From Clostridia bacterium (GTDB lineage: Bacteria > Bacillota > Clostridia > Oscillospirales > CAG-382), in contig JAFSCS010000001.1 of NCBI GenBank assembly GCA_017436675.1, forward strand, positions 9,472 to 73,471: 64,000 nucleotides of DNA, written 5' to 3'. The notes below the pieces were generated by a model. It did no database searches. It was not told where the DNA came from and saw only the letters and a program-made list of their open reading frames with translations. Shown piece by piece: positions 6,505-63,939 of this stretch. A program made the translations under genes and the position numbers. Each line of letters opens with the position of its first letter. Within the stretch, counting starts at the first letter, position 1.

Positions 6505-9500
6505 TTATCTTTTTCTTTTGAGCCCAACAAGAGCGGTTCCGCTTATGATCAAGAGGATCGACCACCACAAAATTCCGCTTCCCTCACCCGTAGGTGGCGT
6601 TTCGGGGATTTCGGATGTCTCGGGGATTTCGGATGTCTCGGGGGCTTCGGATGTCTCGGGAACTTCGGATGTTTCGGGAACTTCGGATGTTTCGGGGATT
6701 TCGGATGTCTCGGGAACTTCGGATGTCTCGGGGACTTCGGATGTTTCCTTATCCTTGAACGTCACTTCGACAGTCACGTTTTTATCCGTTTGCTCATAAG
6801 TATACGTACCGTCGCCGTTGTCTTTCACGGGGATAACGTTGCCGTCCTCATCCTTGACGATGACCTCGTCTATCTCTTTATCAGAGTCGGGAGTAACTGT
6901 TATCGTGACCTCGTCGCCCGACATGGGATCGTCTTTATCAACGTCGACCGTGCCGCCGCTGACGGTGGGCAAGGTTACAACGTAGCTTCTTTCCGTGACG
7001 TTAAGCAAAATGAGGTCATTTGCCGAAAAATCGTTGTCGCTCTCCAAGCATACACCAATATTTGTGACGTCAGCATTAAGTCCCGCACCTTCCAGAAGCG
7101 CCATCAGTTGTCGATATAACGCCAAGTCGACCGTAATACTGTTGGTAGTGTCGTTCGTAAAATGAATGAAATTTTTTGCAACAGTGCCGTTCGAGTTCAT
7201 AAATACAACCGCCGCTTTTTCACCGCTTAGCTTTCTGCCGTTAGCGGTGATGATCAAGCTATGCTCTTCGTCGATATAGAACGTATTTGTCTCGGAGTCA
7301 TAAGCAGGGCTGTCGGAATTATAGATCACCTCTTCGATCCTCGGGAGTTCCTTTTCGAGCTCGACTTGAAGAACTCCATCTTCCCCAATATTTCCGTCAA
7401 AGGTTATAGTTCCGTCCTCGTTGATAGTGAGCTTCAGTGCTTCAGAAGCAAGATATCCCTCGGGTGCGGATTCATTATGAAGTGTATACTCACCGCTTCC
7501 GATATTCAACACAACGTATACCTCATCTTCGGTCATCCATTCCTCGACGACGTCACCGTTCACGTCACGAAGCTGTATTACTGCATCGGCAAGCTCTTTG
7601 CCTGATACTTTATCTATCACCGTAACACATACAAAATGGCGATTTCGGGCTTCGATATGCACGGGGCCATCCTCATCCTCGATCCATATATCGCCATAGG
7701 AATCTTCCACTACAACGTCGTCCTCAAGCATATTCTCGTCAATATCGATTTCATAGCAAATAATATCTTCGTACTGAGCACCCTCAATATCAAGCGTACC
7801 GCCGAAAATGCGAAGTATATTGCCCCAAATGCCCGCGCCGCCTGCATCGATGAAAATAACGCCGCCGTAAACTGTCATTTCTTCCACGCAGTAAATACCA
7901 TCATAATTACCATCGTCGGCGGATGCCATTATCGTTATGTAACCGTCACAGATCAAAATGTTTCCCATAACGTCAATACCGAAATAATCGGACTCTATCT
8001 TCAAAGTGCCACCGTATATTTCGAGGTCGCCATCAATGTTGAAACCGTCCTCACCTGCATACACCTTTATTGAAGGATTGAAGATCGTCAAGCTTTCGTT
8101 AATATCTAAACCGGTGTCCGCGGAATATATGATCAACTCACCGCTGTGTATCAATACGTCGCCGCTATCCGCATCAATGCCATCGTCACCGATATTTTGT
8201 TGCTCGTTGCCTATCAACAAAGTACCGTTTTTCATAATAATGTCGCCGTCTTGGGAATGGATACCGTCGTTATCCGCAACGATCAAAAGACTGCCGTCGC
8301 CGCAGATAGTAATACCATTCTCGATAGCGATGCCGTCACGTTGTATTTCCGTATTATCAGCAGTGTTGGTAAGGCTATTCTCACCAACAAGCTTCAAGGT
8401 TATATCAACGGTAGCATAGACAGAAGCAGTATACGTATAAAAAGGATCCTTTTTCCATTCCACGCCATCACCGCTATATACGAAATCGTTCAGCTCCAAG
8501 ACGCCGTCCTTGTAATATGCGTAACCGCCCTCGGGACGAGATTCGGTGACGTTTTTGTTTGTATCGATATACTGACCATCCCTCAGACCGATATTACCCA
8601 CGTATACGTCATACGTTTCTTCTTGTTTTAATTCGCAAAGCTCGCAAACACCTTCTTCATCAAAGGTATGTGCTTCATATATTGTGTGTCCGCAAACATT
8701 GCATCCGAACTTGTGATTCACCAGCGTGGCACTGATAAAATACGTATGCTCATGAGGTTCCTTATTATACTCCTGCCCACAGAAGCACTTGTCCCAGTGG
8801 TCTGTCTCATCCCACGCAAAATAATACCTTGGATCACAATTCTCGGTTATTTCTTCTCCGCACTCTAAACAAACGCCTGTATGGGTGCCATCCCCATTGG
8901 GAACAGGGGCGTATATGTTGTGGTCGCAAAGGTTTTGACCGCAATGATCACAGAGATAGTCCGAGTCATCGTCTATACACTTTTCTCGAAGATGAGTCAG
9001 ACATTCGTCACAAACGTGGTCGTCGTTTTCATCAAGACAGAGCCAATACATTAAAGCACCGCATACTTCACAAAGATGGTCTTCGATCTCACCATCGAAG
9101 CAAAGCTCTGTCATTCTATAGTGGCAATCGTCACAAATATGGTCTCCGTTATCTCCGTCACGACACATTTGTTCATTACAAATATCGCAGATCTCATCGT
9201 TGTCGCTGTCTGTATGTCTTTCCACTTCCTGATATCCGCATCCACAGTTTCTGTAGTGCTTACCACCGACATCCGGGAGCCATTCATTCTCATCATGAGG
9301 CATGACCGCCGCCTTGTAGCCACAACCCTTCTCACAAGCTGTCCAATGCTCGTTCTCATCCATTCCCCAAACAAGATCGTGGGATTCGATTATCGTCTCG
9401 CCACAATCGGCACAAGTACCAATATGCTGAGCGGGATTCTCGGTGTTAACGATAAAGCTGATGCTCGGGTGGGTACAAGTGAGCTCTTCAGCTATAGCGG

Positions 9501-9573
9501 TCAACATCATAGCCGACATAAGTCCCGCCACCGTTACGATGGCAAGAAATATACTGAATATTCTTTTTTTCAT
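6505..9573 (-). CDS. Sortase-anchored surface protein (Cys-rich region, beta-helix carbohydrate-binding-like repeats, Cna-B/SpaA-like domain)
   Basis: Signal peptide 'MKKRIFSIFLAIVTVAGLMSAMMLTAIA'. A ~280-aa region of CxxC pairs follows. G/D/I-rich repeats such as 'GDGSLLIVADNDGIHSQDGDIIM' resemble Cthe_2159-type domains. 'VTVIDKVSGKELADAVIQLRDVNGDVV...EYTLHNESAPEGY' looks like a Cna-B/SpaA fold. A PETSE[VIA] x8 linker precedes 'TPPTGEGSG' + hydrophobic helix + 'KRKR'. Confidence 0.75.
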   Translation of the reverse strand: MKKRIFSIFLAIVTVAGLMSAMMLTAIAEELTCTHPSISFIVNTENPAQHIGTCADCGETIIESHDLVWGMDENEHWTACEKGCGYKAAVMPHDENEWLPDVGGKHYRNCGCGYQEVERHTDSDNDEICDICNEQMCRDGDNGDHICDDCHYRMTELCFDGEIEDHLCEVCGALMYWLCLDENDDHVCDECLTHLREKCIDDDSDYLCDHCGQNLCDHNIYAPVPNGDGTHTGVCLECGEEITENCDPRYYFAWDETDHWDKCFCGQEYNKEPHEHTYFISATLVNHKFGCNVCGHTIYEAHTFDEEGVCELCELKQEETYDVYVGNIGLRDGQYIDTNKNVTESRPEGGYAYYKDGVLELNDFVYSGDGVEWKKDPFYTYTASVYATVDITLKLVGENSLTNTADNTEIQRDGIAIENGITICGDGSLLIVADNDGIHSQDGDIIMKNGTLLIGNEQQNIGDDGIDADSGDVLIHSGELIIYSADTGLDINESLTIFNPSIKVYAGEDGFNIDGDLEIYGGTLKIESDYFGIDVMGNILICDGYITIMASADDGNYDGIYCVEEMTVYGGVIFIDAGGAGIWGNILRIFGGTLDIEGAQYEDIICYEIDIDENMLEDDVVVEDSYGDIWIEDEDGPVHIEARNRHFVCVTVIDKVSGKELADAVIQLRDVNGDVVEEWMTEDEVYVVLNIGSGEYTLHNESAPEGYLASEALKLTINEDGTITFDGNIGEDGVLQVELEKELPRIEEVIYNSDSPAYDSETNTFYIDEEHSLIITANGRKLSGEKAAVVFMNSNGTVAKNFIHFTNDTTNSITVDLALYRQLMALLEGAGLNADVTNIGVCLESDNDFSANDLILLNVTERSYVVTLPTVSGGTVDVDKDDPMSGDEVTITVTPDSDKEIDEVIVKDEDGNVIPVKDNGDGTYTYEQTDKNVTVEVTFKDKETSEVPETSEVPETSEIPETSEVPETSEVPETSEAPETSEIPETSEIPETPPTGEGSGILWWSILLIISGTALVGLKRKR
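6598..6752. repeat. 18-bp in-frame tandem repeat (~8.5 copies) encoding PETSE[VIA]
   Basis: The unit TTCGGATGTCTCGGGGA[TC] (plus strand) repeats head-to-tail with single-base variants. Confidence 0.9.
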
Positions 9574-30824: not shown

Positions 30825-33545
30825 ATGTATCGTTCAACACACAAAAAGCGTATGCTTTCGTTCCTCCTTGCGATGATCTTTATTCTTTGCTCGTTCTCAT
30901 ACGTTTTTGCGGACGAGGGTGCGCCGTCCACTGAGGGATCGACGCCTGCTGAGGGATCGACGCCTGCTGAGGAATCGACGCCTGCTGAGGAATCGACGCC
31001 TGCCGAGGAATCGACGCCTGCCGAGGAATCGACGCCTGCTGAGGAATCGACGCCTGCTGAGGAATCGACCGAGGAAACGATCGGAGATCTCGAGGGGTTG
31101 AAGGCGGCGATAGAAAACCGCCAAACGAAGATCAAGCTTTCGGGCGTTATCGAATTTGTTGAGGCGATCAGCATTCCCGAGGCGTCGTTTGAGATTAGCG
31201 GCGGAGAGCTTGTCGGTGCAAGCTTCACGGGGCTCGGGCACATCACCTTTACCCAAACAAAGCTTTCGGGTGTGTTGACGGTATCGTCACGCGCGATGAT
31301 AAAGATAGACGGCGATTCGCCGTCGATAGTTGCCTCCGACAGCTCGACCGTTGTCGTCACGGGCAGCGTTATAACAGAGGGCGACGGTCTGACCGTCAGC
31401 GGAAACAGCTCGGTCACCATAGAGGGTGGCATTGATGCGGGAGGCGTCGGTATCGTTGCTGACGGCGGAAGCGTCAACGTCAGCGGAGAAACGAAAAGCG
31501 GCTCGGACGGAGTCAGGTTCACGAAGCTTTCTGCGATAAAAAAGATCGGTGCGATAAAAGCCGAAAGCGGTGTTATGTACCGCGATATGAGCGGCGAAGG
31601 CGGAGTTTTTCCGAAATACTCGCTCGGGGCGACCATCACGTTCGTCAGCGACGGGGCGATGACCTTGAGATACGATTCCGCGGAATACACGATCCGCTCC
31701 AAAACGGCGGGCGAGGTCTCAAAATTCAAGGTCACCTGTGACAAAACGGATTTTTCCGATTATGATGCGCTCGGATACAAGGTGTTCAAGTCGTTCACGA
31801 TGGCTTCCGAAAACTGCGATGCTGACATCAAATACACGAACGAACACCGCAAGGGTGCTTCTGCAATATTGGTCAAAAACGACGGCTCGACCACAACGAT
31901 GCTTTCCGACGAAAAATATAGTGGCGGTTTCGAGGTCAAGGGCGTTGAAAACCTCACGATCGGATTGTATTTGACGTTGATGAAGCACACGGTCACGATA
32001 CTGAAAAGTGAAAACGGAGTGATCTCGTGCGGTGAAGAGCTAATGTTCTACGAGGGCGAGACAGTCGAATTCCGACTCACGCCCGACGACAAATATTATG
32101 CCGAAAAGATCATCATCGGCGGCGAGGAATTCACCCCCGACGGCAATGTGTTCTATTATACGATATTATCCGACATTGACGTCAGCGCCTCATTTAAGCC
32201 CGACAGAAAGATGTTCACCGTCACCATCAGACAGACGACGGGCGGTACGGTCTCGCATAAGGGTACGGTCACGGTGTTCGAGGGCGACTCATTGACGCTC
32301 GTTATGAAGCCCGACGACGGACATTATCTTTCGATGATCGAGATCAACAAGGAATTGATGGAGCGCAGCGAGACCTACACGATAGAAAATATAACCGAGG
32401 ACCTCATCGTTTTCATAACCTTCAAGCAATCGAAGACGTATTCGATCGTTTTGAAGCATACCGCAGGCGGTACTGTCACCGCCGACGACACCGACGTTTT
32501 TTACGGCGGCAGCACAAAAATACGAATAACTCCCGACGAAGGGTACGTTGTCGACAAGGTCATCGCCGATTCCGGCACGCTCACGGCAACGAGCGACCCG
32601 AATATATACAGGCTCAAAAGCATCACCGTGGACACGACGGTGACAGTCAGCTTCAAAAAGCTCGACGGCGAATTGCCTCCGCCCCCTGTTGAGATGCTGA
32701 AGGTAAGCGACGTAACTTGGGACTACCACCCGATACGTCTTGAGCTGTTTGAATACACCGTCATTTCCGAAGACGTTATCGAAAAGCTGAAGACCGATTA
32801 TCCGGACATCGCGTTCTCGATCATCGGCGAAGGCTTCAACTGGAATTTTGCGGCAGGCGACGCGGAGCATTTTCCCGAGGGCGACCTCGATTTCGGTGTG
32901 CTCGTCGGAAGATCGGAATTTGAAGAAAACCATCTCGCTTTCGCAGGCGGATCGAATTATATCTCCGTTACCATCCCCGACGGAACGCCGACTGTCGGCG
33001 AGCTGAAGGTGTTTGCCGGAAGACCATTCACGGGACTTCCCTTCCGTGCCTTCTCATATAGCGACGGCAAATACACACAGATCTCCGAATGCTTTTGCGA
33101 TGCATACTTTGAGGTCACGATACCGCTCGGCAACAAAGAGATACTGATGCTTTGTAACGCTGAACCGGCGAACACGGTCACGATCAAGATCGAAGGAAAC
33201 GGAACTGCAACGCCGAACGCAACGAAATACATCAAGGACGGCGACAGCATTAAATACATATTTGAGCCCGACGCCTCCTCGTATCTTGCGAGGGTAACGA
33301 TCAACGGCTCGCCCGCATATATGAACGGTCACGTGCTTCTCATCGAAAACGTGACGGAGGATCTCGAGATCGTTTGCGTCTTTTTGCCGCACGAATCAAG
33401 TGAGATCAGCAGATATCAGCTTCCCATAATCGAGAACCGAGCAGATATAATCGTTTACGTTTTCGCGTTTGTCGGAGTTGGTTGCTATTTAATTTACATC
33501 GTCCTGCGCAGAACGGGAAAGATCAAATATAAAAAAGAGTTTTAA
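30825..33545 (+). CDS. Membrane-anchored surface protein with divergent InlB B-repeat-like domains
   Basis: A signal peptide, then E[GE]STPA x7. Four ~70-aa modules (for example 'FTVTIRQTTGGTVSHKGTVTVFEGDSLTLVMKPDDGHYL') resemble the divergent InlB B-repeat. A C-terminal TM helix 'IIVYVFAFVGVGCYLIYIVL' is followed by a basic tail. Confidence 0.7.
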   Translation: MYRSTHKKRMLSFLLAMIFILCSFSYVFADEGAPSTEGSTPAEGSTPAEESTPAEESTPAEESTPAEESTPAEESTPAEESTEETIGDLEGLKAAIENRQTKIKLSGVIEFVEAISIPEASFEISGGELVGASFTGLGHITFTQTKLSGVLTVSSRAMIKIDGDSPSIVASDSSTVVVTGSVITEGDGLTVSGNSSVTIEGGIDAGGVGIVADGGSVNVSGETKSGSDGVRFTKLSAIKKIGAIKAESGVMYRDMSGEGGVFPKYSLGATITFVSDGAMTLRYDSAEYTIRSKTAGEVSKFKVTCDKTDFSDYDALGYKVFKSFTMASENCDADIKYTNEHRKGASAILVKNDGSTTTMLSDEKYSGGFEVKGVENLTIGLYLTLMKHTVTILKSENGVISCGEELMFYEGETVEFRLTPDDKYYAEKIIIGGEEFTPDGNVFYYTILSDIDVSASFKPDRKMFTVTIRQTTGGTVSHKGTVTVFEGDSLTLVMKPDDGHYLSMIEINKELMERSETYTIENITEDLIVFITFKQSKTYSIVLKHTAGGTVTADDTDVFYGGSTKIRITPDEGYVVDKVIADSGTLTATSDPNIYRLKSITVDTTVTVSFKKLDGELPPPPVEMLKVSDVTWDYHPIRLELFEYTVISEDVIEKLKTDYPDIAFSIIGEGFNWNFAAGDAEHFPEGDLDFGVLVGRSEFEENHLAFAGGSNYISVTIPDGTPTVGELKVFAGRPFTGLPFRAFSYSDGKYTQISECFCDAYFEVTIPLGNKEILMLCNAEPANTVTIKIEGNGTATPNATKYIKDGDSIKYIFEPDASSYLARVTINGSPAYMNGHVLLIENVTEDLEIVCVFLPHESSEISRYQLPIIENRADIIVYVFAFVGVGCYLIYIVLRRTGKIKYKKEF
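30933..31070. repeat. 18-bp in-frame tandem repeat (7 full copies plus a partial one) encoding E[GE]STPA
   Basis: The unit GAGG[GA]ATCGACGCCTGC[TC] repeats head-to-tail. Confidence 0.9.
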
Positions 33546-50981: not shown

Positions 50982-51007
50982 AATGCTTCTCCTGATTGGT
51001 GCGAATT

Positions 51008-51250: not shown

Positions 51251-51275
51251 TGTTTCGTGCCTTTCTTTATTGTCG

Positions 51276-51914: not shown

Positions 51915-51969
51915 TTTTCGCAACTCCTTTTTTATTTCTCCGCCCTTTCGGGCGGAGATGATGAACGTT

Positions 51970-53229
51970 TTAGAACAATATTATTAAAAATTGTGATACG
52001 AGCACGACAGCGATGAGCGCTATCGGGTAGGTTGCCGCATATGCGGAAGCAACGTCCTCAGTTCCCGCAACACCGATGAGTGTTCCGAGAGCGGGTGTGC
52101 TCGTCATACCGCCCGTGATCGAGCCTAAGTTGTTGAGAAGGCTGAGCTTGAGGACGTATTTTGCGAACAAGAATCCGATTATCAACGGAGCTATCGTCAT
52201 AATGATACCGTATACGAAATACATTACGTCGAAGTTTTCAACGAACTCTGCGCCACCGGGGATACCTGCTCCAACGAGGAACAACACGAGCCCGAGCTCA
52301 CGGAAGAGCTTGAGTGTGCTTGATGCAGGCATAATATTTACTTTGCCGATGCGAGAGAAGTGTCCCATTACGAGACTCACGAGCAAGCATCCGCCCGTTG
52401 TTGTGAGCGAGAAGCACGTTCCGCTGAGTCCGTCGCCCGAAAGCGGAATCTTTATTTGTCCGAGAACGGTTCCGAGTAATGCCGCGAGAGAAAACGCCGC
52501 GATACCCATATGGTCGATCTCGAAGAGCTTTCCTGTGAAGCCTTTCTTTTCGTCTTCTTCTTTTATCACGAGCTTTGCGCGTTCCTCGTCCATATTAGCT
52601 TTTGTGAGCTTCGGGATGAGTTGAACGAACAATACGACGCCGATAACGCCGAAGATATATGCGATACCGTGACCTACGGACACGAGAGCTTGGTATTGCT
52701 CTGCAACTGTTGCTTTAGCCGCGGAGAACGCAGGAGTAGATGTGAGTGAGCCTGAGAGAAGGCCAACGATCATCGCAACGAAGCCGTCTTGATCCTCGAT
52801 CGTTCCGCCGTATCCGACTACCTCGCCCAAGCCGATACATCCGGCTGCGGAAAGTCCGCCCGCGAGGATGATTATCAAGCCTAAAAGAACGTAGGATTTG
52901 AAGTTTCTTTTGAAGTTTCCGAAAAATTTCGGACCTGCGATGAAGCCGACCGACGTTACGAAGAGAACGAGTCCGAAGCTTTCGATCAAAGAAAGTCCGC
53001 TTGAGAAGTCGAAGGGCTTTGATGATGCAAAGAAGATGAGTCCATCGTCTCCGACGCTGAAGCAAAGTGCTCCAACGAGAAGCGCGATAATAAATACTCC
53101 CGCATCACCGAGGGATATCCCTTTTACAGTAACTCTGCCGAGGACGTATCCGCCCATCAATACGGCAAAAACTACGAAAAGGAGTGTTGATATATTGCTA
53201 ATGGAGATAACTCCGCCAAATAAACTCAT
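51970..53229 (-). CDS. AAE-family (aspartate:alanine exchanger / YidE-YbjL / SucE-like) permease
   Basis: 419 aa made of two homologous ~5-TM halves joined by a charged linker 'KLVIKEEDEKKGF'. The glycine-rich helices are typical of Asp-Al_Ex domains. I see no TrkA-C domains. Confidence 0.65.
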   Translation of the reverse strand: MSLFGGVISISNISTLLFVVFAVLMGGYVLGRVTVKGISLGDAGVFIIALLVGALCFSVGDDGLIFFASSKPFDFSSGLSLIESFGLVLFVTSVGFIAGPKFFGNFKRNFKSYVLLGLIIILAGGLSAAGCIGLGEVVGYGGTIEDQDGFVAMIVGLLSGSLTSTPAFSAAKATVAEQYQALVSVGHGIAYIFGVIGVVLFVQLIPKLTKANMDEERAKLVIKEEDEKKGFTGKLFEIDHMGIAAFSLAALLGTVLGQIKIPLSGDGLSGTCFSLTTTGGCLLVSLVMGHFSRIGKVNIMPASSTLKLFRELGLVLFLVGAGIPGGAEFVENFDVMYFVYGIIMTIAPLIIGFLFAKYVLKLSLLNNLGSITGGMTSTPALGTLIGVAGTEDVASAYAATYPIALIAVVLVSQFLIILF

Positions 53230-53266
53230 TTTTGAAATTCCTTTCTATAGTAGGGCGCGACCGAGA

Positions 53267-54856: not shown

Positions 54857-54870
54857 TGTCTTTCTCCTCC

Positions 54871-55545
54871 TTATTTCTCGATCTCACGGTTGTTGTAAAG
54901 CTCTTTCATCTCGGAAACAGGCTTTTGCATCAAGTTTTCGAGAAGCTCTTCAAACGTGCCGTCTTTGATCTCTTGTACTCTTGCTTCAAGGTGCTCGGAC
55001 TTCGGAGCGAGGTATTTTCCGTTGAGACGTCTTGCGAGAAGACCTACTTGGGGATGAGAGATACCTGCAGGGCAACGTGACGAGCAAACGCCGCACATTA
55101 CACAGTCAAAGGACTCTTCTGCGCATTTTTCATACTCGCCTCTTTGAGCGTATGCGATATATTGCATTACGTTGAGACCTTGAGTACAGCTCTTCGTACA
55201 AGCGTTGCATCCGATACAGCTGTATATTTCGGGATAGAGCTGCATCATGATCTGCTCTGTGGGTTTTATTTCGTTGATATCATAAACTTGCTTTACAAGC
55301 GGGAAGAACGGGAGAGTTGCTACGTACATATTCTCCTCGACCTTTGTTTGACAAGCGAGGCAGACCTTGAGCTCTCTGTCGCCTTTAATTCTATATACTG
55401 TTGCACACGCGCCGCAGAATCCGTTTCTGCATCCGCATCCGCGAACGAGACTGTAGCCCGCATATTCCATTGCGCGCATTATCGTCAAGTTGGAGGGAAC
55501 GGAATATTTCTTTCCGAACAAAAATACATTTACCATTTCTGCCAT
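54871..55545 (-). CDS. Fumarate reductase iron-sulfur-subunit-like protein
   Basis: N-terminal [2Fe-2S]-like 'GCGCRNGFCGACATV...CLAC' and two cluster motifs 'CIGCNACTKSC' and 'CVMCGVCSSRCP'. Confidence 0.65.
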   Translation of the reverse strand: MAEMVNVFLFGKKYSVPSNLTIMRAMEYAGYSLVRGCGCRNGFCGACATVYRIKGDRELKVCLACQTKVEENMYVATLPFFPLVKQVYDINEIKPTEQIMMQLYPEIYSCIGCNACTKSCTQGLNVMQYIAYAQRGEYEKCAEESFDCVMCGVCSSRCPAGISHPQVGLLARRLNGKYLAPKSEHLEARVQEIKDGTFEELLENLMQKPVSEMKELYNNREIEK

Positions 55546-55601
55546 TGTTATTTTACTCTCTTACGTCGAAATGACGATATAAGTTCCTTTCTTCGTTTTA
55601 A

Positions 55602-56429
55602 TCAATATTCGTTGGGAAGCTCATCGAGCTCGTCGCATCTGAACACCGGTCCGTCTTTACATACGTACTTCGAGCCGATGTTACAACGTCCGCATTTACC
55701 GACGCCGCACTTCATTTTCAGCTCCATCGTCGTAAACACTTGTGTTTTGTCAAATCCGAGCTCACTGAGTCCTGCAAGTGTGAATTTGATCATTATGGGA
55801 GGTCCGCAGATGATTACCGTTTTATTCGTATCAAATCCGAGCTCCTTAACGTAGTTCGGAACGAATCCAACGTGGCCGTCCCAGCCCTCTTGCTCACGGT
55901 CGATCGTGAGGTGAACGTTTACGCCCTCCTCAACGCACCATTCGTTGATTATCTCCTTATAGTCAACGAGGTCGTCCATACTTCTCGAGCCGTAAACTAT
56001 ATCGATCGTTCCGTAGCTGTCACGATAGTGGCGAACGTAGTTGATAACGGAGCGAAGCGGTGCAAGACCGATACCGCCTGCGATAAAGAGGAGGTTTTTG
56101 CCCTTGAACACCGTATCAACGGGAAATCCGTTTCCATACGGACCGCGGATCGTTACCTGCTGACCGACCTCCATATGATGAAGCCAATCGGTGAGGCATC
56201 CGCATTTCTTTATACTGAATTCCATAAATTCCGTGTTCGTCGGAGATGACGTTATCGAGAACATCGCCTCGCCGACACCGGGGATGGAGAGCATTGCGCA
56301 TTGTCCCGGAATATGCTCAAAAACCTTTTTTCCGTCGGGAGCAACTACTCTGAACGTTTTAACGTCGGGTGTATCGATACGAATATCTGTTACAACGCCG
56401 AGCTTTGGGATCAAAACTTCTTCGATCAT
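55602..56429 (-). CDS. FAD/NAD(P)H-binding [2Fe-2S] oxidoreductase (FlxA / AsrB / sulfhydrogenase-gamma-like)
   Basis: 'LLFIAGGIGLAPLRSV' and C-terminal 'CGVGKCGRCNIG...VCKDGPVF'. The start is set at ATG 56429 (RBS AAGGAG), 2 nt after the upstream stop. Confidence 0.7.
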   Translation of the reverse strand: MIEEVLIPKLGVVTDIRIDTPDVKTFRVVAPDGKKVFEHIPGQCAMLSIPGVGEAMFSITSSPTNTEFMEFSIKKCGCLTDWLHHMEVGQQVTIRGPYGNGFPVDTVFKGKNLLFIAGGIGLAPLRSVINYVRHYRDSYGTIDIVYGSRSMDDLVDYKEIINEWCVEEGVNVHLTIDREQEGWDGHVGFVPNYVKELGFDTNKTVIICGPPIMIKFTLAGLSELGFDKTQVFTTMELKMKCGVGKCGRCNIGSKYVCKDGPVFRCDELDELPNEY

Positions 56430-56431
56430 TT

Positions 56432-57454
56432 TTAGTTTTCTCCTTTCAAGGTCTTCATTACCTTCACGATATTCATCGAGATCGGGCATTTATTGAGGCA
56501 TCTGCCGCATCCGACACAGCCGAACTCACCGCTGTTATTAGCGGGGAAGTATACGAGCTTGTGCATAAATCTTTGGCGGAATCTTTCAAGCTGAGTGAGT
56601 CTGGGGTTGCCGTGCGCCATCTTTGTGAAGTCGGAATACATACAGCTATCCCAGCAACGATATCTTTTTACGCCGTGACCTGTTTCGAAGTCCTTGATAT
56701 CGTAGCATTGACAAGTCGGGCAAACGAAGGTACAAGTACCGCATCCGAGACAGCTCTCGGAAAGAGACGCCCATTTTTCAGAATCGAAGAGCTCCTTCAA
56801 TTTGTCGCCGCCGAAGGAATCGGTATCCAATTTTCCGAGCGGGAGACGATCGAGTATCTTCTTTGTGTTTTCAATTTGTGCATCGACCTCTGTGCGATCG
56901 CACTCTTCAAGCGAAAGCTCGGAAAGAAGTGCATTTCCCTTTTCGGTAACGCCCTCGAGGTAGTAGCAGTCATTTCCCTTCCAAGCGCGGATATCTCCCT
57001 CGGGCTCAGTGGGATCTATTCCGAAGGTCGTGCAGAAGCACGTTTCGGAGGGCTTTTGACAAGCGAGAGAGATCACTATTCCCTTTTCTCTCTTTGCCTT
57101 ATAAAACGTATCAACGGGCTCGGAGAGGAAGACCTTATCGAGAATCGAGAAGCTTCTTACGTCGCAAGCTCTTACACCGAACATCACGAACGGTCTTACC
57201 TCGCGGCGTTCGTCTGTGATCTCGATATTTTTTCCGTCGAGCTTAAAGGACACGATATCCTCGTGCTGCGGGAAGAAGAAATCCTTCGCGCTTCTTACGG
57301 TGTTGAGGTCATCGGAAACTGTTTTTCCTTGCTCCCATTTTTCAAAATACGATTGACCGTCGTTCTTTTTGGTCGGAACAAAAAGGTCATATTTTTCGCT
57401 GATCTTCTCAAAAAGCGAATTTAACTTTTCAAAACTGATCTTTACCATTTTCAT
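56432..57454 (-). CDS. 4Fe-4S dicluster protein (FlxB / AsrA / sulfhydrogenase-beta-like)
   Basis: 'CLGCGTCTFVCPTCQCYD' and 'CVGCGRCLNKCP'; 340 aa. Confidence 0.65.
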   Translation of the reverse strand: MKMVKISFEKLNSLFEKISEKYDLFVPTKKNDGQSYFEKWEQGKTVSDDLNTVRSAKDFFFPQHEDIVSFKLDGKNIEITDERREVRPFVMFGVRACDVRSFSILDKVFLSEPVDTFYKAKREKGIVISLACQKPSETCFCTTFGIDPTEPEGDIRAWKGNDCYYLEGVTEKGNALLSELSLEECDRTEVDAQIENTKKILDRLPLGKLDTDSFGGDKLKELFDSEKWASLSESCLGCGTCTFVCPTCQCYDIKDFETGHGVKRYRCWDSCMYSDFTKMAHGNPRLTQLERFRQRFMHKLVYFPANNSGEFGCVGCGRCLNKCPISMNIVKVMKTLKGEN

Positions 57455-57463
57455 TCCTCCCTA

Positions 57464-58429
57464 TTATTCTTTATCCGTTACCACAGAGGGCTCGGGGTCT
57501 TTTTCGGTGTAGCTTGTGAGCGGACCTCTTGCTTCGGGGTCTTCACCTGCTTGATAATCACCGTAGAGTGTATTGATGTCTTTAATGAACTTGCGGTTGA
57601 GAAGGTGCAAAGGAATTCCTTGGGGGCATACTCTCGAGCACTCGCCGCAGTCCGTACATCTTCCTGCAACGTGGAACGCGCGGATGATGTGGAACATATT
57701 CTCCTCGAAGCTCGTTACGGGTGCTTTGTTAACGTATCCCGAGTTATCGTTATCGAAGATACATTTTTCGCAAGAACAAGCGGGGCACACGTTTCTGCAC
57801 GCATTACAACGAATGCATCTTGAAAGCTCGTTTCTCCAGAATTCGAAGCGCTCGTCTGCCGTCATATTCTCGATCATTTCGACCTCGTCGAAGCGTTTTG
57901 AATCAAGCACCTCGCCCTCGTCTCCGAGAAGCTCGTCGTATGCAACGTGCTTTTTCGATTTGCAGTTCACGCAACGCTCAGCCAAAGCATCTGCACGGTT
58001 TATTTCATATTTATCATAGAGCGTTTCAACGCTGATCTTATCGCCGTCGGACGAAAGAGCGATGATGCCGTCGCCGACAGTTCTTTTGATCTTTTCGATA
58101 TCCACCTTGCCGTCACACGAAACGCCGACAACGTAGACCTTTTCTCTGTTTATCCTATGCTCACTCAAAAGCTGATTAAAGCTATAGGTATCGCAGGGCT
58201 TCAAGAACACGAGCACCTTGCCGTCCTTGTGAGCCTCTTTTATAAGATATTTCGAAAGGTTAGCACCACAGAAATCGTCATAGATAAAGCCGTTATCTAT
58301 CTCCTCTGCGTTTGTGAAGACAGCGGGGGTGATATCATAGCAGAATTCACCCTTTTTCCAGCCTATCACTGCGCGGACTTCTCCGCTTGCCAAAAGCTCT
58401 TTCGCTTTATTTTTCATTACTTCTTGCAT
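57464..58429 (-). CDS. Iron-sulfur protein (FlxC-like)
   Basis: 'CIRCNACRNVCPACSC' and 'CTDCGECSRVCPQG'. A strong GGAGGA RBS precedes ATG 58429. Confidence 0.6.
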   Translation of the reverse strand: MQEVMKNKAKELLASGEVRAVIGWKKGEFCYDITPAVFTNAEEIDNGFIYDDFCGANLSKYLIKEAHKDGKVLVFLKPCDTYSFNQLLSEHRINREKVYVVGVSCDGKVDIEKIKRTVGDGIIALSSDGDKISVETLYDKYEINRADALAERCVNCKSKKHVAYDELLGDEGEVLDSKRFDEVEMIENMTADERFEFWRNELSRCIRCNACRNVCPACSCEKCIFDNDNSGYVNKAPVTSFEENMFHIIRAFHVAGRCTDCGECSRVCPQGIPLHLLNRKFIKDINTLYGDYQAGEDPEARGPLTSYTEKDPEPSVVTDKE

Positions 58430-58851
58430 CTCAGATCCTCCAATCTCTTGTTTTCACCGAGCTTTGTTACTGTGGCAACGAAATCGTTCATCGTAGCCGC
58501 AAATTTTGCGCCCTCTGCCGCAGATACCCACTCGACTCTTGTACGTTCCTTTTCGATCCCGAGGTAATCGAGCATCGAGAAGAGGAGAGTCATTCTTCTT
58601 CTTGCGTAGTAGTTACCTGTTGTATAGTGGCAGTCGCCGGGGTGACATCCGCAGATGATAACACCGTCCGCGCCTCTTTGGAACGCTCTGAGCACGAACA
58701 AGGGGTTTACTCTGCACGAGCAAGGAACACGGATTATTTTTACGTCAGCGGGATAATTCAATCTGTTCGTTCCCGCAAGGTCAGCACCCGCATAGGAGCA
58801 CCAGTTGCAGCAGAACGCGACGATCTTCGGTTTGAATTCGTTTACTTGCAT
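58417..58851 (-). CDS. mvhD: MvhD/FlxD-type hydrogenase iron-sulfur subunit
   Basis: 'IVAFCCNWCSYAGADLAG....YP..VKIIRVPCSCRVNP..VLRAFQRGADGVIICGCHPGDCHY'. Confidence 0.85.
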   Translation of the reverse strand: MQVNEFKPKIVAFCCNWCSYAGADLAGTNRLNYPADVKIIRVPCSCRVNPLFVLRAFQRGADGVIICGCHPGDCHYTTGNYYARRRMTLLFSMLDYLGIEKERTRVEWVSAAEGAKFAATMNDFVATVTKLGENKRLEDLRCKK

Positions 58852-60830
58852 ATTGCATCTACCTCCGCCATGATCTGTTTATTAGAGAAGCCCTTGAGGT
58901 CCATAGCTCCCGAAGGACAGGTTACGGTACAAGCACCGCAGCCTTGACATACCGCATCGTTTACTACTGCTACGCGGCGAACTCTCGTTGTTCTGTCGGG
59001 CATTCTGAACTCTTTATCAACGTAGGATATCGCGTTATACGCGCATACCTTCGCACAGTTCGAGCATCCGTTACACATATTTTCGTCGGAATGTGCAACG
59101 CACGCATTATTTTTCATTTTATCCTTCACGAGAAGACCGATGACCTTCGCTGCTGCCGCACTTGCTTGGGCAACGGTTTCGGGGATATCCTTCGGGCCTT
59201 GACAAGCACCCGAGAGGAAGATACCTGCTGTCGGGCTTTCAACGGGACGAAGCTTCGGGTGAGCCTCGGTGAAGAAGTCGTTTGTGTCCATGCTTGCCGT
59301 CAACATCGTTGCGAGCGGTCTTGCCGTCTTATCGGGCTCGATAGCCGCCGCCAATACGACGAGGTCAGCGTCGATGGTGAGTTGTTCGTTGGAGATGAGG
59401 TCGCTCGCACGAACGATGAGCTTATCTCCCTCGGGGATGACCTTTCCGACCATACCCTTTATGTAATGCACGCCGTATTCTTCAACTGCTCTGCGGTAGA
59501 ACTCATCGAAGTTCTTGCCGGGTGTTCTGACGTCGATATAGAATACGTATACCTCTGTATCGGGGTATTTTTCTCTTGTGAGCATTGCGTGCTTTGCGGT
59601 ATACATACAGCAGATCTTCGAGCAATATGATTTTCCGCATTCTCTTGTATCACGAGAGCCGACGCATTGAACGAAAACGATCTTATGCGGATGCTTTCCG
59701 TCGGAGGGACGAAGCAATTTTCCTGCTGTCGGGCCTGCGGCGTTCGTGAGACGTTCGAATTCAAGCGAGGTAATTACGTCCTTGCTTTGAGAATATGCAT
59801 ATTCGTCATACTTATCGAGCTTTATCGGATTAAATCCTGTTGCAACTACGATAGCACCGTATTTTTCGGTGATAAATTCGTCTTTTTGTGTATAATCGAT
59901 AGCGCCTGCGGTACATACCTTTGAGCAGACACCGCATTTACCTGTTTTGAGCATCGTGCAGTAATCGGCGTCGATGGTCGCTATCTTCGGAACTGCTTGT
60001 GCAAACGGGATATAGATCGCTCTTCTTTGGTCCATTCCGAGATTGAACTCGTTGGGAACACGTTTTTGAGGGCATTTTTCGGTGCAGAGACCGCATCCCG
60101 TACATTTCGTTTCGTCAACGAAACGAGCTTTTCTCTTTATAGTTACCTCGAAGTTACCGACGAATCCCTTTACGCCGCTGACTTCGCTATAGGAATATAT
60201 TTTGATATTCTCGTTTTGAGCAGCATCTACCATTTTCGGTGTGAGGATACAAGCCGCACAGTCGAGTGTCGGGAACGTCTTGTCGATCTGGCTCATCTTA
60301 CCGCCGATGGTCGGGAGCTTTTCGACGATATCTACGGGGAATCCCGCATCCGCGATATCGAGTGCCGTTTGGATACCTGCTATACCGCCGCCGATAACGA
60401 GTGCGCGTTTTACAACGGGAGTCTCACCCGATGTGAGCGGTGCGTTAAGATGCACCTTTGCAACGGCTGTACGAGCGAGGATTATTGCCTTTTCCGTACC
60501 CGTTGCCATATCCTTATGTATCCACGAGCATTGCTCACGTATATTTGCGATCTCAACCATATAGGGATTGAGTCCAACGGATTGCGCCGCTTTTCTGAAC
60601 GTTGCCTCGTGCATTCTCGGTGAGCACGAGCAAACGACGATACCCGTCAATTTATGCTCTTTAATTGCATCTTTGATAATATTCTGACCTGCTTCGGAGC
60701 ACATATATTGATAATCGGTGGAGAACACTACACCGTTTTCGTATTTCATTGCCTCGGCAACCGCTTTTACGTCAACGGTTCCCGCGATATTTGTACCGCA
60801 ATGACATACGAATACACCTATTCTTTGCAT
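58842..60830 (-). CDS. hdrA: Heterodisulfide reductase subunit A-like flavoprotein
   Basis: 'ALVIGGGIAGIQTALDIADAG', an N-terminal 'VFVCHCGTNI', and several ferredoxin-type motifs ('CTGCGLCTEKCP', 'CNGCSNCAKVC', 'CQGCGACTVTCP'). 662 aa. Confidence 0.85.
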   Translation of the reverse strand: MQRIGVFVCHCGTNIAGTVDVKAVAEAMKYENGVVFSTDYQYMCSEAGQNIIKDAIKEHKLTGIVVCSCSPRMHEATFRKAAQSVGLNPYMVEIANIREQCSWIHKDMATGTEKAIILARTAVAKVHLNAPLTSGETPVVKRALVIGGGIAGIQTALDIADAGFPVDIVEKLPTIGGKMSQIDKTFPTLDCAACILTPKMVDAAQNENIKIYSYSEVSGVKGFVGNFEVTIKRKARFVDETKCTGCGLCTEKCPQKRVPNEFNLGMDQRRAIYIPFAQAVPKIATIDADYCTMLKTGKCGVCSKVCTAGAIDYTQKDEFITEKYGAIVVATGFNPIKLDKYDEYAYSQSKDVITSLEFERLTNAAGPTAGKLLRPSDGKHPHKIVFVQCVGSRDTRECGKSYCSKICCMYTAKHAMLTREKYPDTEVYVFYIDVRTPGKNFDEFYRRAVEEYGVHYIKGMVGKVIPEGDKLIVRASDLISNEQLTIDADLVVLAAAIEPDKTARPLATMLTASMDTNDFFTEAHPKLRPVESPTAGIFLSGACQGPKDIPETVAQASAAAAKVIGLLVKDKMKNNACVAHSDENMCNGCSNCAKVCAYNAISYVDKEFRMPDRTTRVRRVAVVNDAVCQGCGACTVTCPSGAMDLKGFSNKQIMAEVDAICK

Positions 60831-60845
60831 CTTCTTCTCCTCCTG

Positions 60846-61235
60846 TTACTTACTGTATTTTCTGAACGCCGTGACGATAGCCTGTTGCGGAAGGTCCTCG
60901 TCCAAAAGATCGGGGATCATATCTGCTTTGAGGTGGTTTTCGCCTTGCTTTCTGATCTTTGCAACTCTTACCGCTTCGATGAATTTCGCCGGCTCAACAC
61001 CGCGAGGGCATCTTTCGACACAAGCGAAGCAGGAAAGACATTTATATATGGAATCGGTATTCATAAGCGGCTCAATGTCGCCCTTCTCTACCATATACAC
61101 GAACTGATGGGGTTTATATTCCATCTCGTTACCGTTGGGGCAGGTTGCGGTACATTTTCCGCATTTCATACATTTTTTCGGATCGACGCCTGCGCTTCTG
61201 ATCACGTTTTCTTTCAAATTGTTGGAAAAGCTCAT
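60846..61235 (-). CDS. hdrC: Heterodisulfide reductase subunit C-like 4Fe-4S protein
   Basis: 'CMKCGKCTATCP' and 'CLSCFACVERCP'; 129 aa. Its ATG overlaps the hdrB stop (ATGA). Confidence 0.7.
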   Translation of the reverse strand: MSFSNNLKENVIRSAGVDPKKCMKCGKCTATCPNGNEMEYKPHQFVYMVEKGDIEPLMNTDSIYKCLSCFACVERCPRGVEPAKFIEAVRVAKIRKQGENHLKADMIPDLLDEDLPQQAIVTAFRKYSK

Positions 61236-62023
61236 CAGTTTTCTCCTTTCACACCTAACGCCTCGGCAAGAAGCTCGGTGAAATACTTCACAGGAAGCTC
61301 TACAGCACCGTTTTTATTGAGGTTATAGAGGCAAAGCGGGCAAGCGGTTATAATTTCTTCCGCGCCGTTTTTCTCTGCGCTCTCCATAACGAGTGTGCTT
61401 TTCTTTATCGCGTTATTTTTGTCCTCGAGCGCGATATATCCACCGCAGCATTCGTTTCTGTAGGGATATACGACGGGCTCACCGCCGATCGCTCTGATGA
61501 AATCCTCGATGATGGTCGGGTTCTCGGGGTTATCCATTGCCATTATCTTCGAGGGACGGAGAAGCAAGCATCCGTAGTATGCGGCAACCTTCTTTCCACC
61601 GAGGGGATTCACTACCTTTTCCTTGAGCTTATCAAATCCGACAACGTCACGAAGCAGCTCGAGAAAATGGATGACCTTCGTTTCGCCGTTATAGGGCTCT
61701 TCATCCTTCATATAGTTATGTACTCTGTTTATCATATCCTCATTTGTAGTCATATCGTTGTTGACTTGCTTGAGAACGTTGTGACAAGCGGAGCAAAGAG
61801 TTACGAGATCCTGTCCCTTCTCTTTAGCGGCAGCGAGCGCGCGGACGGAAGAAAGCTTCGAAGCGATCTCATCCTTTGCCATACTGTATGCACCGCCGCA
61901 GCATTGCCAGTTTTCAAGCTCTACGAGGTCTATTCCGAGCGCCTCAGCGCTGAGTCTTGCATATTTGTCCAGCTCCTTCGCCTTAGTTTTAAGCGTACAG
62001 CCGGGATAATAACTGAATTTCAT
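61235..62023 (-). CDS. hdrB: Heterodisulfide reductase subunit B-like CCG-domain protein
   Basis: Two cysteine-rich CCG motifs, 'WQCCGGAYS...LCSAC' and 'NECCGGYI...ACPLC'. Confidence 0.8.
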   Translation of the reverse strand: MKFSYYPGCTLKTKAKELDKYARLSAEALGIDLVELENWQCCGGAYSMAKDEIASKLSSVRALAAAKEKGQDLVTLCSACHNVLKQVNNDMTTNEDMINRVHNYMKDEEPYNGETKVIHFLELLRDVVGFDKLKEKVVNPLGGKKVAAYYGCLLLRPSKIMAMDNPENPTIIEDFIRAIGGEPVVYPYRNECCGGYIALEDKNNAIKKSTLVMESAEKNGAEEIITACPLCLYNLNKNGAVELPVKYFTELLAEALGVKGEN

Positions 62024-62094
62024 TCAATACCTCCGATTATTTTTCAAAAACTTTTTTGAATGTATTAAACTAATTTGATCTTATATTCAAAATA

Positions 62095-62459
62095 CAATCT
62101 GTTTTAAGCTTGGAATTTTCCGGTGTCGAACTCTTTGTTCGACCGAAATGGGGTCGGGTCCCATTTCGAGGGAATTTCGCTTTGCAATCGCACTGTGTTT
62201 TTATTGGTACAATATACAATCTGTTTTATGCTTGGAATTTTCCGGTGTCGAACTTTTAGTTCGACCGAAATGGGGTCGGGTCCCATTTCGAGGGAAATTC
62301 GCTTTGCAATCGCACTGTGTTTTTATTGGTACAATATACAATCTGTTTTAAGCTTGGAATTTTCCGGTGTCGAACTTTTAGTTCGACCGAAATGGGTCGG
62401 GTCCCATTTCGAGGGAAATTCGCTTTGCAATCGCACTGTGTTTTTATTAGTACAATATA
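62095..62459. repeat. 3 x 122-bp near-identical tandem repeat
   Basis: Copies start at 62095, 62217 and 62339 and differ at only about 8 positions in total, including one 1-nt deletion. Each copy carries the palindromes GTCGAAC-N5-GTTCGAC and CGAAATGGG-N6/7-CCCATTTCG. Confidence 0.95.
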
Positions 62460-62469
62460 ACTATTGCAA

Positions 62470-63846
62470 TTATACCATTTGCTCGGGGTGGAAGACCTCG
62501 TCGAACTTCTCTGCGGTGAGGAATCCGAGCGCAACACAAGCTTCCTTGAGCGAGATATTCTCTTTATATGCCTTCTTCGCTGTCTTTGCGGCGTTTTCAT
62601 AACCGATATAGGGGTTGAGCGCCGTTACAAGCATCAAGGAATTGTGGAGATTGTGGTGCATTTTTTCTTTAATAGCCTTAATTCCGACTGCGCAATTGTT
62701 GTTAAACGAAACGATCGATTCAGCGAGGAGACGTGCGGATTGCAAGAAGTTGTAGCTGCAAACGGGCATAAACACGTTGAGCTCAAAGTTACCTTGTGAT
62801 GCCGCCATACCGACTGCAACGTCGTTACCCATAACCTGCACTGCAACCATCGTTACTGCCTCACACTGTGTCGGGTTCACCTTGCCGGGCATAATGGAGG
62901 AGCCGGGCTCGTTTTCGGGGATCGTGATCTCACCGAGGCCGTCGCGAGGACCGCTTGCGAGCCAACGAACGTCGTTTGCGATCTTCATCATATCTGCCGC
63001 AAGTCCTTTGAGTGCGCCGTGTGCGAACACCATCTCATCCTTCGATGTGAGCGCGTGGAATTTATTTTCTGCTGTCTTAAAATTCTTTCCCGTGATCTCG
63101 GAAACCGCCTCAGCGACCTTAACGTCAAAGCCCTTCGGAGCGTTGAGCCCCGTTCCTACAGCCGTGCCGCCGAGCGCCAACTCCTTGAGCTCGTCAGCAG
63201 CAAGAAGAATGAGCTTTCTGTCCTTTTCAAGACTGCTTCTCCAACCGCTGATCTCTTGCGAGAACGTGATGGGGGTTGCGTCTTGGAGGTGTGTACGACC
63301 GCTCTTTACGATCCCTTCGTTTTCCTTCTCGAGACGCTTGAAGGTGTCGATGAGGAGATCGATCGCGGGGATGAGCTTATCCTCGATCATCAAAACTGCG
63401 CTGATGTGCATTGCCGTCGGGAACGTATCGTTGGAGGATTGGCTCATATTGATATCGTCGTTGGGGTGGAGAAGCTTTTTGCCTGCTATCTCGTTACCTC
63501 TGTTGGCGATTACCTCGTTGGCATTCATATTGGATTGTGTGCCGCTTCCCGTTTGCCATACAACGAGCGGGAAATGGTCGTTGAGCTGACCTGCGATGAC
63601 CTCATCACAAGCCTTGCTTATTGCATTCAATTTTTCTTCAGTCATTTTTTCGGGCTTGAGAGCGCTGTTTGCGATAGCAGCCGCCTTCTTCAAGATACCG
63701 AATGCGTGAGTGATCTCACGGGGCATCGTCTCGATGCCAACTCCGATGCGGAAGTTTCCTTTACTTCTTTCTGTTTGTGCCGCCCAATATTTGTCGGCAG
63801 GTACGAGCACCTCGCCCATTGAATCGTGTTCTGTGCGAAATTCCAT
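62470..63846 (-). CDS. fumC: Class II fumarate hydratase
   Basis: '[28 protein letters not shown]' and the signature '[15 protein letters not shown]'. The track start at 63864 is TTG; ATG 63846 with RBS GGAAGGA aligns with FumC N-termini. Confidence 0.95.
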
Positions 63847-63939
63847 TATATTTATTCCTTCCAAAAGTAGATTTTTATTTTATATTATTTCGTGACAGTG
63901 CCTTGATGCTGAAAACACCAAGGCAGTCGAGCTTCTATA

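Follow-up and report, generated by a model that had tools for sequence, protein, structure and literature searches.

Why should the boundary between two metabolic genes hold three nearly identical copies of a strongly palindromic 122-bp sequence? The question is raised by a 64,000-nucleotide stretch of DNA, here called the window, from a Clostridia bacterium (Oscillospirales, CAG-382; GenBank assembly GCA_017436675.1, contig JAFSCS010000001.1, positions 9,472 to 73,471), in which such an array lies between fumC and an hdrB-like gene. A sequence-only reading of the window had recognised the array and had offered as possible roles a threefold operator or upstream activating site serving the hdr genes, a set of small antisense or sRNA units, or a strain-variable VNTR (variable number tandem repeat). 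The comparisons described here establish that the array does vary in copy number among close strains, and indicate that the repeated element most likely acts through mRNA structure, and not as a promoter or operator. The explanation that we tentatively favour, with a little less than even confidence, is that an intercistronic RNA structure peculiar to these lineages, akin to the stabilizer or processing elements of Clostridium operons, has been amplified as a VNTR.

The array and its repeat unit

Coordinates are positions in the window, and features are given on the plus strand unless stated (Table 1). Tandem Repeats Finder reported the array with a period of 122, 3.1 copies, 96% matches and a score of 695, by far the strongest tandem array in the window, and alignment of the three units (62095-62216, 62217-62338 and 62339-62459) gave a mean column identity of 98%, with differences confined to five substituted columns and a 1-nt deletion in the hairpin 2 loop of unit 3. 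The array fills the 446-nt spacer from the fumC stop codon to the hdrB start; its two ends are 72 nt from the start codon of hdrB (62023) and 10 nt from the stop codon of fumC (62470-62472). The threefold repeat, its palindromes and its location were thereby confirmed as first described.

The core of each unit is a module of about 70 nt, in which two adjacent perfect hairpins (9 bp in hairpin 2, 7-9 bp in hairpin 1) are closed by an outer stem of 9 bp that is imperfect. This stem is formed by a third inverted repeat (GAATTTTCC / GGGAAATTC, plus strand), which encloses both hairpins in every unit, and the fold predicted for each unit is hence a three-way junction; it is predicted for both strands, and its junction strands measure 1, 0 and 3 nt. 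The module nearest hdrB has an additional mismatch in its outer stem (GAAATTCCC, mRNA strand). Beyond it, the A/T-rich leader of hdrB holds the Shine-Dalgarno sequence GGAGG (62030-62034 on the plus strand), and at the opposite end of the spacer the fumC-proximal TTGCAA is predicted to pair with a TTGCAA immediately 5' of the first module. The upstream hairpin so formed, with an interior that has diverged, was predicted for each of the three long-allele (module-bearing) lineages folded.

The open reading frames within the array had been taken for repeat read-through, and that is what they are. Natural indels interrupt the only frame that runs through the module: the 25-aa frame that starts from hairpin 2, rejected here as a small gene, loses its phase both at the 1-nt deletion of unit 3 and in a diverged relative (L043), where hairpin 1 is longer by 5 nt. 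A public assembly has a 159-aa gene with no Pfam match called across the repeat in L003, a contig with three units (2664-3143, equivalent to 62123..62602 of the window, plus strand). It is likewise a read-through artefact, and is shortened in strains with one or two units.

Predicted folding and the two strands

The genes fumC, hdrB, hdrC and hdrA share the minus strand, which places the array on one transcribed strand, flanked by cistrons that read in the same direction. Predicted folding energies are -11.9 kcal/mol for hairpin 2, -8.3 to -8.7 kcal/mol for hairpin 1 and -25 to -33 kcal/mol for the module. The middle-copy module gives -27.8 kcal/mol (z -4.8) in the sense (mRNA, minus) orientation and -32.0 kcal/mol (z -4.3) in the antisense (plus) orientation, and the three-copy spacer -132 kcal/mol (z -8.3) on the mRNA strand versus -134 kcal/mol (z -4.5) on the plus strand; a single-copy spacer reaches -41.4 kcal/mol (z -6.4). 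No run of four or more U occurs within about 20 nt downstream of the modules, where the sequence is AAGCUUAAAACAGAUUGUAU with U runs of at most two. By published rules (PMC8219983, PMC4423207) the absence of such a run makes the structure a "stabilizer" and not a "terminator" stem-loop, and one feature expected of the stabilizers of SRPS (selective RNA processing and stabilization), a stable stem-loop without a poly(U) tail and with little U downstream, is present. An intrinsic terminator was ruled out, as the module has no U-tract; a terminator scan of the array found none on either strand, its sole match in 61900-62700 being inside fumC.

The energies also bear on the suggestion that the units are small RNA genes on the plus strand, each transcribed from TACAAT just upstream of the module and antisense to the fumC-hdrB spacer. 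On that strand the outer stem is a full 9-bp helix, with G.U in place of the C.A of the mRNA strand, and a C/T polymorphism at that site reads as G.U to A-U; the plus-strand module is 3-5 kcal/mol more stable in seven of ten variants, and TACAAT (window) or TATAAT (L010) stands about 13 nt upstream. Pairing of the outer stem is thus slightly better on the plus strand. The units have, however, no conserved promoter or terminator: TACAAT has neither a -35 element nor a TG extension and is CACAAT in L059, the promoter scan was empty, L010 lacks the T-run that follows the module, and the z-scores of the whole unit favour the minus strand (-5.2 versus -2.7). The extended -10-like motif TGGTACAAT is present as first reported, as is its change to TAGTACAAT in copy 3, but it becomes TGGTACGAT (TACGAT) in the L049 group and is absent from L010. 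With no -35 element, no conservation, and an orientation antisense to both fumC and hdrB (which are on the minus strand), it was judged a chance match, and plus-strand small RNAs seem to us improbable.

Copy number among strains

The contigs compared encode an identical or near-identical HdrB or FumC and derive mostly from ruminant gastro-intestinal metagenomes, together with metagenome-assembled genomes (MAGs) labelled Clostridia or Eubacteriales. With copy numbers read as minimum or approximate, since they come from short-read metagenome assemblies in which a 122-bp repeat may collapse or chimerise, spacers of 203-206 nt hold one unit (L002, L004, L006, L054, L059, L061, L068), those of 324-329 nt two (L001, L049-53, L055-58, L060, L067) and those of 446 nt or more three or more (the window, L003, L062, L069). 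Five contigs (L005, L007, L062, L069, L070) end inside the array. The unit junction, CAGATTGTAT followed by AT[T/C]G[T/C]AC, is identical throughout, and variation in copy number with this same junction occurs in three strain groups. The flanks of the window and L003, with three units, match those of L001, with two, base for base over 1,789 nt; L049 (two units) and L054 (one) also share identical flanks; and one strain is represented by nine assemblies with two units and a tenth with one. Head-to-tail copies, and a copy number that differs among close strains at the same locus, are what defines a VNTR, and the suggestion that this is one was correct. For individual contigs assembler collapse may be the explanation; as the only source of the differences it is improbable overall, given nine independent assemblies that agree on the two-copy array and arrays that differ in unit composition.

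The arrays vary in unit composition, and carry lineage-specific substitutions common to all units of an array, such as GAATTTTCC in every unit of L067 and L069, which also have ACCCAAC in every hairpin 2 loop read. Differing composition combined with array-wide substitutions points to expansion, contraction and homogenisation by unequal exchange. The near-identity of the units had been attributed to recent amplification or concerted evolution, and one, two and three or more units between near-identical flanks, with substitutions shared array-wide, are in agreement with this.

In one single-unit contig (L068), about 135 nt past the fumC stop codon, the 3' flank is GATTGTATATTGAATA and not GATTGTATTTTGAATA. 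As this is the base typical of an inter-unit junction, it could be the footprint of an array contraction, a single-nucleotide polymorphism or an assembly chimera.

Lineages, alleles and constraint on the hairpins

A neighbour-joining tree of fumC places the module in four lineages: lineage i (the window, L002, L004, L049, L067), lineage ii (L059, L060), about 10% diverged from it, lineage iii (L010), about 11% diverged, and lineage iv (L043), about 15% diverged. It is absent from L044 (20% diverged), in which the spacer is 14 nt, from L046, which has an unrelated spacer of 294 nt, and from nearly all relatives at 55-78% HdrB identity, in which fumC and hdrB are 20-40 nt apart.

The evidence for constraint comes from the diverged lineages. 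Relative to L002, the module core is identical at 73 of 76 positions in L010 and at 69 of 80 in L043, and the L043 changes are all in loops, in the outer stem or in compensatory pairs. The fumC-proximal linker of the same spacer is 66% identical in L010 and diverged in L043, third codon positions are 65-70% and about 60% identical, respectively, and the lysR-mdh spacer is 68% identical between L010 and L002. Hairpin 1 reads GTCGAAC-N5-GTTCGAC in the window, GTCGAACG-AAAG-CGTTCGAC in L010 and GTCGAAACG-AAGTGT-CGTTTCGAC in L043, with a stem of 7-8, 8 and 9 bp across the lineages that is complementary throughout. The outer 6-bp arms of this hairpin are spaced 7 bp apart in the window, 8 in L010 and 12 in L043; an arm spacing that varies while the stem stays perfect fits a folded strand and is not readily explained by a dimeric DNA-binding site. 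The arm spacing of hairpin 2 is constant, and a protein might bind there. Within species, substitutions fall only in loops, junctions, linkers and the outer stem, and none was seen in the two hairpin stems.

Several observations weigh against a selected RNA structure. In the contig L065, whose fumC is 1.1% different from that of L010 and whose flanks are the same as in L010, the spacer is 97 nt long and the module is missing; this is also the case in L066, which belongs to a second lineage. This short allele has no significant predicted structure (z -0.4). Covariation is weak, with one double-sided change among 25 pairs, a result reached by 111 of 500 shuffles; it is not significant, there being only that single change and too few diverged sequences (four module lineages). 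In most variants a C.A mismatch interrupts the outer stem on the mRNA strand, at a position that reads G.U on the opposite strand, and further changes in this stem go uncompensated in L043 and in the hdrB-proximal unit; the L067 group has a perfect outer stem. Finally, a tract of low divergence between lineages i and ii reaches about 350 nt into hdrB, and part of the high identity of these two lineages may be due to recombination and not selection. The approximate nature of the copy numbers belongs on the same side.

From the absence of the module in L065 despite identical flanks, it follows that the module is dispensable and that the long and the short allele coexist in one species. About 10% divergence separates the two short alleles, and so both allele classes are either old or have been exchanged between lineages. 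The hdrB-proximal leader, about 95% identical between L002 and L010, is retained in the short allele and is not found in L043. A CAAAGC/CAAGC repeat flanks the module, with CAAAGCTT occurring once in the short allele. A simple insertion with target-site duplication was considered and rejected: the fumC-side sequences are unrelated between the alleles and do not reveal a clean insertion.

One alternative is a neutral structural polymorphism, that is, lineage-specific palindromic junk DNA that behaves as a neutral VNTR, plays no part in expression, and owes its apparent conservation to a recent recombinational spread of the long allele between close lineages. Presence and absence within one species (L010 versus L065), zero to three or more copies in near-identical strains, restriction to one locus in a narrow clade, and the low-divergence tract around the spacer in lineages i and ii, which suggests allele exchange, speak for it. 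Neutral drift fits poorly, however, with stems that are unchanged in L010 and L043 while the linker has diverged (66%, with third codon positions at 60-70%), with a hairpin 1 that changes through compensatory pairs only, and with intraspecific substitutions that spare both stems. We regard neutrality as unlikely, though worth keeping in mind.

Genes around the array

Upstream of fumC are mdh and then a gene for a LysR-type regulator, and the whole cluster runs LysR, mdh, fumC, hdrB, hdrC, hdrA, mvhD (FlpD), two Fe-S proteins and an FAD/NAD (DHODB-type) protein, continuing with a 2Fe-2S/4Fe-4S protein, an FrdA-like flavoprotein, an Asp-Al_Ex transporter, a Rex-like regulator and an Fe-hydrogenase-like protein. 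Read as mdh-fumC-hdrBCA-mvhD-flx-like-FeS-FrdA-like, this conserved cluster couples malate/fumarate enzymes with electron transfer of the Hdr/Flx type and with a flavoprotein resembling fumarate reductase, and suggests a soluble NADH- or ferredoxin-linked fumarate reductase system. The adjacency of fumC and hdrB, often 14-40 nt apart, recurs in many metagenome contigs retrieved via HdrB homologues, and the gap is 14-40 nt in most relatives with 55-85% HdrB identity. Gaps this short indicate that fumC and the hdr genes form one operon, the hdr genes not being separate.

This arrangement is central to whether the repeat acts as DNA, as a set of operators, activating sites or a promoter tandem repeat serving an internal hdr promoter in the 70-nt leader, with copy number setting promoter strength. 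Perfect palindromes are typical of protein-binding sites, genes for LysR-like and Rex-like regulators flank the cluster, the leader is conserved between L002 and L010 and kept in the short allele, and variation in the copy number of promoter tandem repeats is a known mechanism (PMC12817950). Yet a scan of the spacer for sigma-70-like promoters found no site on either strand, where 1.5 were expected, and a sigma-70 or extended -10 promoter (hexamers at -35 and -10 spaced 16-18 nt, or TGn-TATAAT) was dismissed, with no consensus site found and the motif not conserved in relatives. The 14-40 nt spacers of most relatives are too small for a promoter, L043 has the module but not the leader, and the LysR gene occurs with or without the module. 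At hairpin 1, whose arm spacing shifts by 1 and 5 bp across lineages, the fixed spacing of inverted half-sites that marks a dimeric operator was not found. Rex had been singled out as a protein to test at the palindromes; no Rex-like box (TTGTKAA-N4-TTMACAA) occurs within three mismatches in the spacer or upstream of mdh, and a Rex operator was discarded, although a Rex-like gene ends the cluster. With hdr not a separate operon, no promoter and a variable hairpin 1, the triplicated operator or activating site first envisaged is not supported, and we give any DNA-level regulatory role little chance.

A promoter-like site, TTGATT-17-TAAAAT, does occur just upstream of mdh. Directly upstream of it, the palindromes ATATCGATA / TATCGATAT are repeated (L002 3265-3295), and a similar pair, TATATCGAAAC...ATATCGATATC, was seen upstream of hdrB in a distant relative (L020). 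The palindromes upstream of mdh may be the operator of the regulator of the operon.

Two further spacers lend support to the RNA-structure reading. The mdh-fumC spacer (L002 4328-4420, past the end of the window) has a conserved hairpin of its own without a U-tract, GCCTTGGTG-N7-CATCAAGGC (-19 kcal/mol), in which a G.U pair is present on the mRNA strand only; the spacer is 87-95% identical between lineages whose third codon positions are 65-78% identical. In L014 and L018 an unrelated hairpin without a U-tract occupies the same fumC-hdrB position.

That hairpin of L014 and L018 is G+C-rich, with a predicted energy of -24.3 kcal/mol (z -5.3). Elsewhere at this boundary, L025-L028 and L036 have a G+C-rich spacer of about 190 nt, and the 294-nt spacer of L046 and L047 holds a TTGATAATTATCAA palindrome together with a hairpin resembling a terminator. 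Lineage-specific spacer evolution seems to have a hotspot at the fumC-hdrB boundary.

Table 1. Positions of the array, its parts, the surrounding genes and other features (window coordinates unless a contig is named)
Feature	Position	Strand	Basis or remark
Tandem array, 3.1 x 122 bp	62088..62459	.	Tandem Repeats Finder and alignment
Hairpin 1, GTCGAAC-N5-GTTCGAC	62125-62143, 62247-62265, 62369-62387	+ coordinates
Hairpin 2, CGAAATGGG-N6/7-CCCATTTCG	62144-62168, 62266-62290, 62388-62411	+ coordinates
"-10-like" motif TGGTACAAT	62205-62213, 62327-62335	+
"-10-like" motif variant TAGTACAAT (unit 3)	62448-62456	+
Module, hdrB-nearest copy	62101..62187	-	Covariance model R1, 112.4 bits; fold predictions
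Outer stem of hdrB-nearest module	62113-62121 pairing with 62170-62178
Module, middle copy	62223..62309	-	Covariance model R1, 115.7 bits
Module, fumC-nearest copy, with 1-nt deletion in hairpin 2 loop	62345..62430	-	Covariance model R1, 111.8 bits
Non-repeated A/T-rich hdrB-proximal leader	62024..62094	-
fumC-proximal segment with TTGCAA (62464-62469)	62460..62469	-	Fold predictions
fumC, class II fumarate hydratase, upstream cistron	62470..63864	-	Pfam Lyase_1 2.3e-108 and FumaraseC_C
hdrB-like protein, two CCG domains, downstream cistron	61235..62023	-	Pfam CCG 1.2e-20
hdrC	60846-61235	-	Gene call
hdrA	58842-60830	-	Gene call
2Fe-2S/4Fe-4S protein	54871-55545	-
FAD_binding_2 FrdA-like flavoprotein	53267-54856	-
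Asp-Al_Ex transporter	51970-53229	-
Rex-like regulator	51276-51923	-
Fe-hydrogenase-like protein	49305-50981	-
Co-directional cluster	49305-63864	-	Likewise L001/L002 1-12789
Short allele, fumC-hdrB spacer, 97 nt	L065 2878-2974; L066 2878-2974		hdrB-proximal leader retained
Open reading frame with 18-bp repeat	6505..9573	-	1022 aa, Cthe_2159 and SpaA domains
Open reading frame with 18-bp repeat	30825..33545	+	906 aa, Flg_new_2

The window holds other tandem repeats. Two have an 18-bp period and lie inside large open reading frames, one at 6602-6744 (7.9 copies, 91% matches; minus-strand frame) and one at 30931-31069 (7.7 copies, 97% matches; plus-strand frame), and are hexapeptide repeats in what are probably surface proteins. 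Two shorter arrays have periods of 21/42 bp (18699-18788) and 24 bp (43818-43882).

Searches for relatives and likeness to known elements

Is the unit a member of a known family? The sequence-only reading could match it to no RNA family, and a cmscan of 61900-62600 against Rfam 15 returned no match on either strand even at E<=10; at gathering scores, the scan of the whole window gave only a tRNA (21352-21423). A 25-base exact pattern spanning both hairpins matched one locus in 185,579 species genomes (one genome per species), the orthologous fumC-hdrB spacer of the Eubacteriales MAG JAZRTU01 (L010). With its filters off, covariance model R1 picked up the three units alone in the 64 kb (112-116 bits), and no other hit exceeded 14 bits; it found no further copies over the window and 41 loci, and no module in 36 loci of more distant relatives. 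The pattern had no match in IMG/VR, and blastn against plasmids and phages returned none. On these single-locus results, which cover the genome collection, IMG/VR, plasmids, phages and, of the window's own strain, the 64 kb, a dispersed repeat or mobile element was rejected, the finding that would have undone the proposed link to this operon.

A new cis-regulatory RNA, binding a ligand or protein through a riboswitch-like three-way junction ahead of the hdr-flx-frd genes, with tandem copies to sharpen the response, would be in keeping with the predicted fold, with the conserved hairpin 2 loop (ACCCRAC) and with a position before a metabolic gene set, and tandem aptamers are known in other riboswitch classes. 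The junction strands are merely 1, 0 and 3 nt, however, the hairpin 1 loop varies freely, Rfam has no match, the module lies 70-90 nt from the ribosome-binding site in single-copy spacers, and it is absent from a conspecific strain (L065) and from all more distant relatives. The combination of a conserved unpaired core and an expression platform that defines a riboswitch was not found; inspection of the sequence and of single-copy folds revealed no terminator/antiterminator and no anti-Shine-Dalgarno partner. Such an RNA is in our estimation very doubtful. Base pairing between the hairpin 2 loop and the Shine-Dalgarno sequence of hdrB, considered separately, would comprise 4 bp only and is broken by a G/A loop polymorphism; a hammerhead or other ribozyme was set aside because the junction strands are too short and Rfam has no match. 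Compared with known tandem riboswitches, the module is alike in being a structured RNA candidate, in tandem, upstream of a metabolic gene, but has no Rfam family or expression platform, has minimal junctions and is dispensable within a species.

The closer parallels are with intercistronic structures that act on mRNA, the reading that we favour. The REP and BIME elements of enterobacteria, such as those of malE-malF, are co-transcribed intercistronic palindromes, imperfect or perfect, that protect upstream mRNA from 3' exonucleases; together with ERIC, they are dispersed families of tens to hundreds of copies per genome. The module resembles them as a set of palindromes in an intercistronic spacer, often clustered in those families, but differs in occupying one locus only (in the 185,579 species genomes and in the 64 kb), and the many scattered copies that characterise REP/BIME, ERIC, MITE and MIRU elements were not found. 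The mycobacterial MIRUs are a dispersed family between operon genes, some of which are translated as short coupling open reading frames. Stabilizer stem-loops of the SRPS type are described in the cip-cel and other Clostridium operons (PMC4423207, PMC8219983, PMC10311766), and here the likeness extends to an intergenic, probably intra-operonic site at the 3' end of the upstream cistron, a stable structure without a poly(U) tail, a Clostridia host, an operon for a multi-subunit complex, and orthologous stem-loops that are lineage-specific. SRPS elements are, however, single stem-loops, whereas the module is compound (two hairpins and an outer stem), tandemly amplified, and polymorphic in presence and copy number. 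In these last respects it recalls intergenic VNTRs, namely MIRUs and the promoter tandem repeats of M. tuberculosis, in which the repeats carry promoter elements and copy number sets promoter strength (PMC12817950): units of tens to about 100 bp, intergenic, with copy numbers that vary between close strains and changes that are polyphyletic. From these it differs in being single-locus, non-coding, without a recognisable promoter, and built on strong hairpins. The module is novel in sequence and locus-specific, but known in kind, and it probably works like the SRPS stem-loops and the REP/BIME stabilisers.

A possible role in the operon

If the element is such a stabilizer or processing structure, the spacer would be transcribed from the mdh promoter within a polycistronic mdh-fumC-hdr mRNA, in which the module would fold and, having no U-tract, would not terminate transcription. 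It would then serve as a nuclease barrier or processing landmark, with the A/U-rich single-stranded linkers between modules as likely endonuclease targets. Copy number (0, 1, 2, 3+) would shift by unequal recombination or slippage between units, and each extra tandem copy would add a barrier and an A/U-rich linker, and so might tune the ratio of upstream to downstream transcript. We infer transcription through the spacer, folding in vivo, the effect on RNA decay and the effect of copy number from the genomic comparisons given above.

A more far-reaching version of the same idea is that the module is a previously undescribed structured RNA whose heritable copy number (0 to 3+) acts as a contingency-type rheostat in the mdh-fumC-hdr-flx-frd operon of a ruminant-gut Clostridia clade, setting the stoichiometry of the malate/fumarate enzymes to the Hdr-Flx-fumarate-reductase-like complex via RNA processing or stability, or via the release of stable, structured 122-nt fragments. 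We think this rather unlikely as it stands.

Since the module is restricted to a narrow clade and one locus, and is dispensable there, its general importance is limited. At a practical level, a near-perfect repeat of 122 bp breaks or collapses short-read assemblies at the fumC-hdrB locus and yields spurious open reading frame calls. If the role proposed for the module is true, these strains would constitute a natural allelic series (0, 1, 2, 3+) in otherwise near-identical backgrounds, which could be used to test how intercistronic structure relates to operon transcript ratios in uncultured gut anaerobes.

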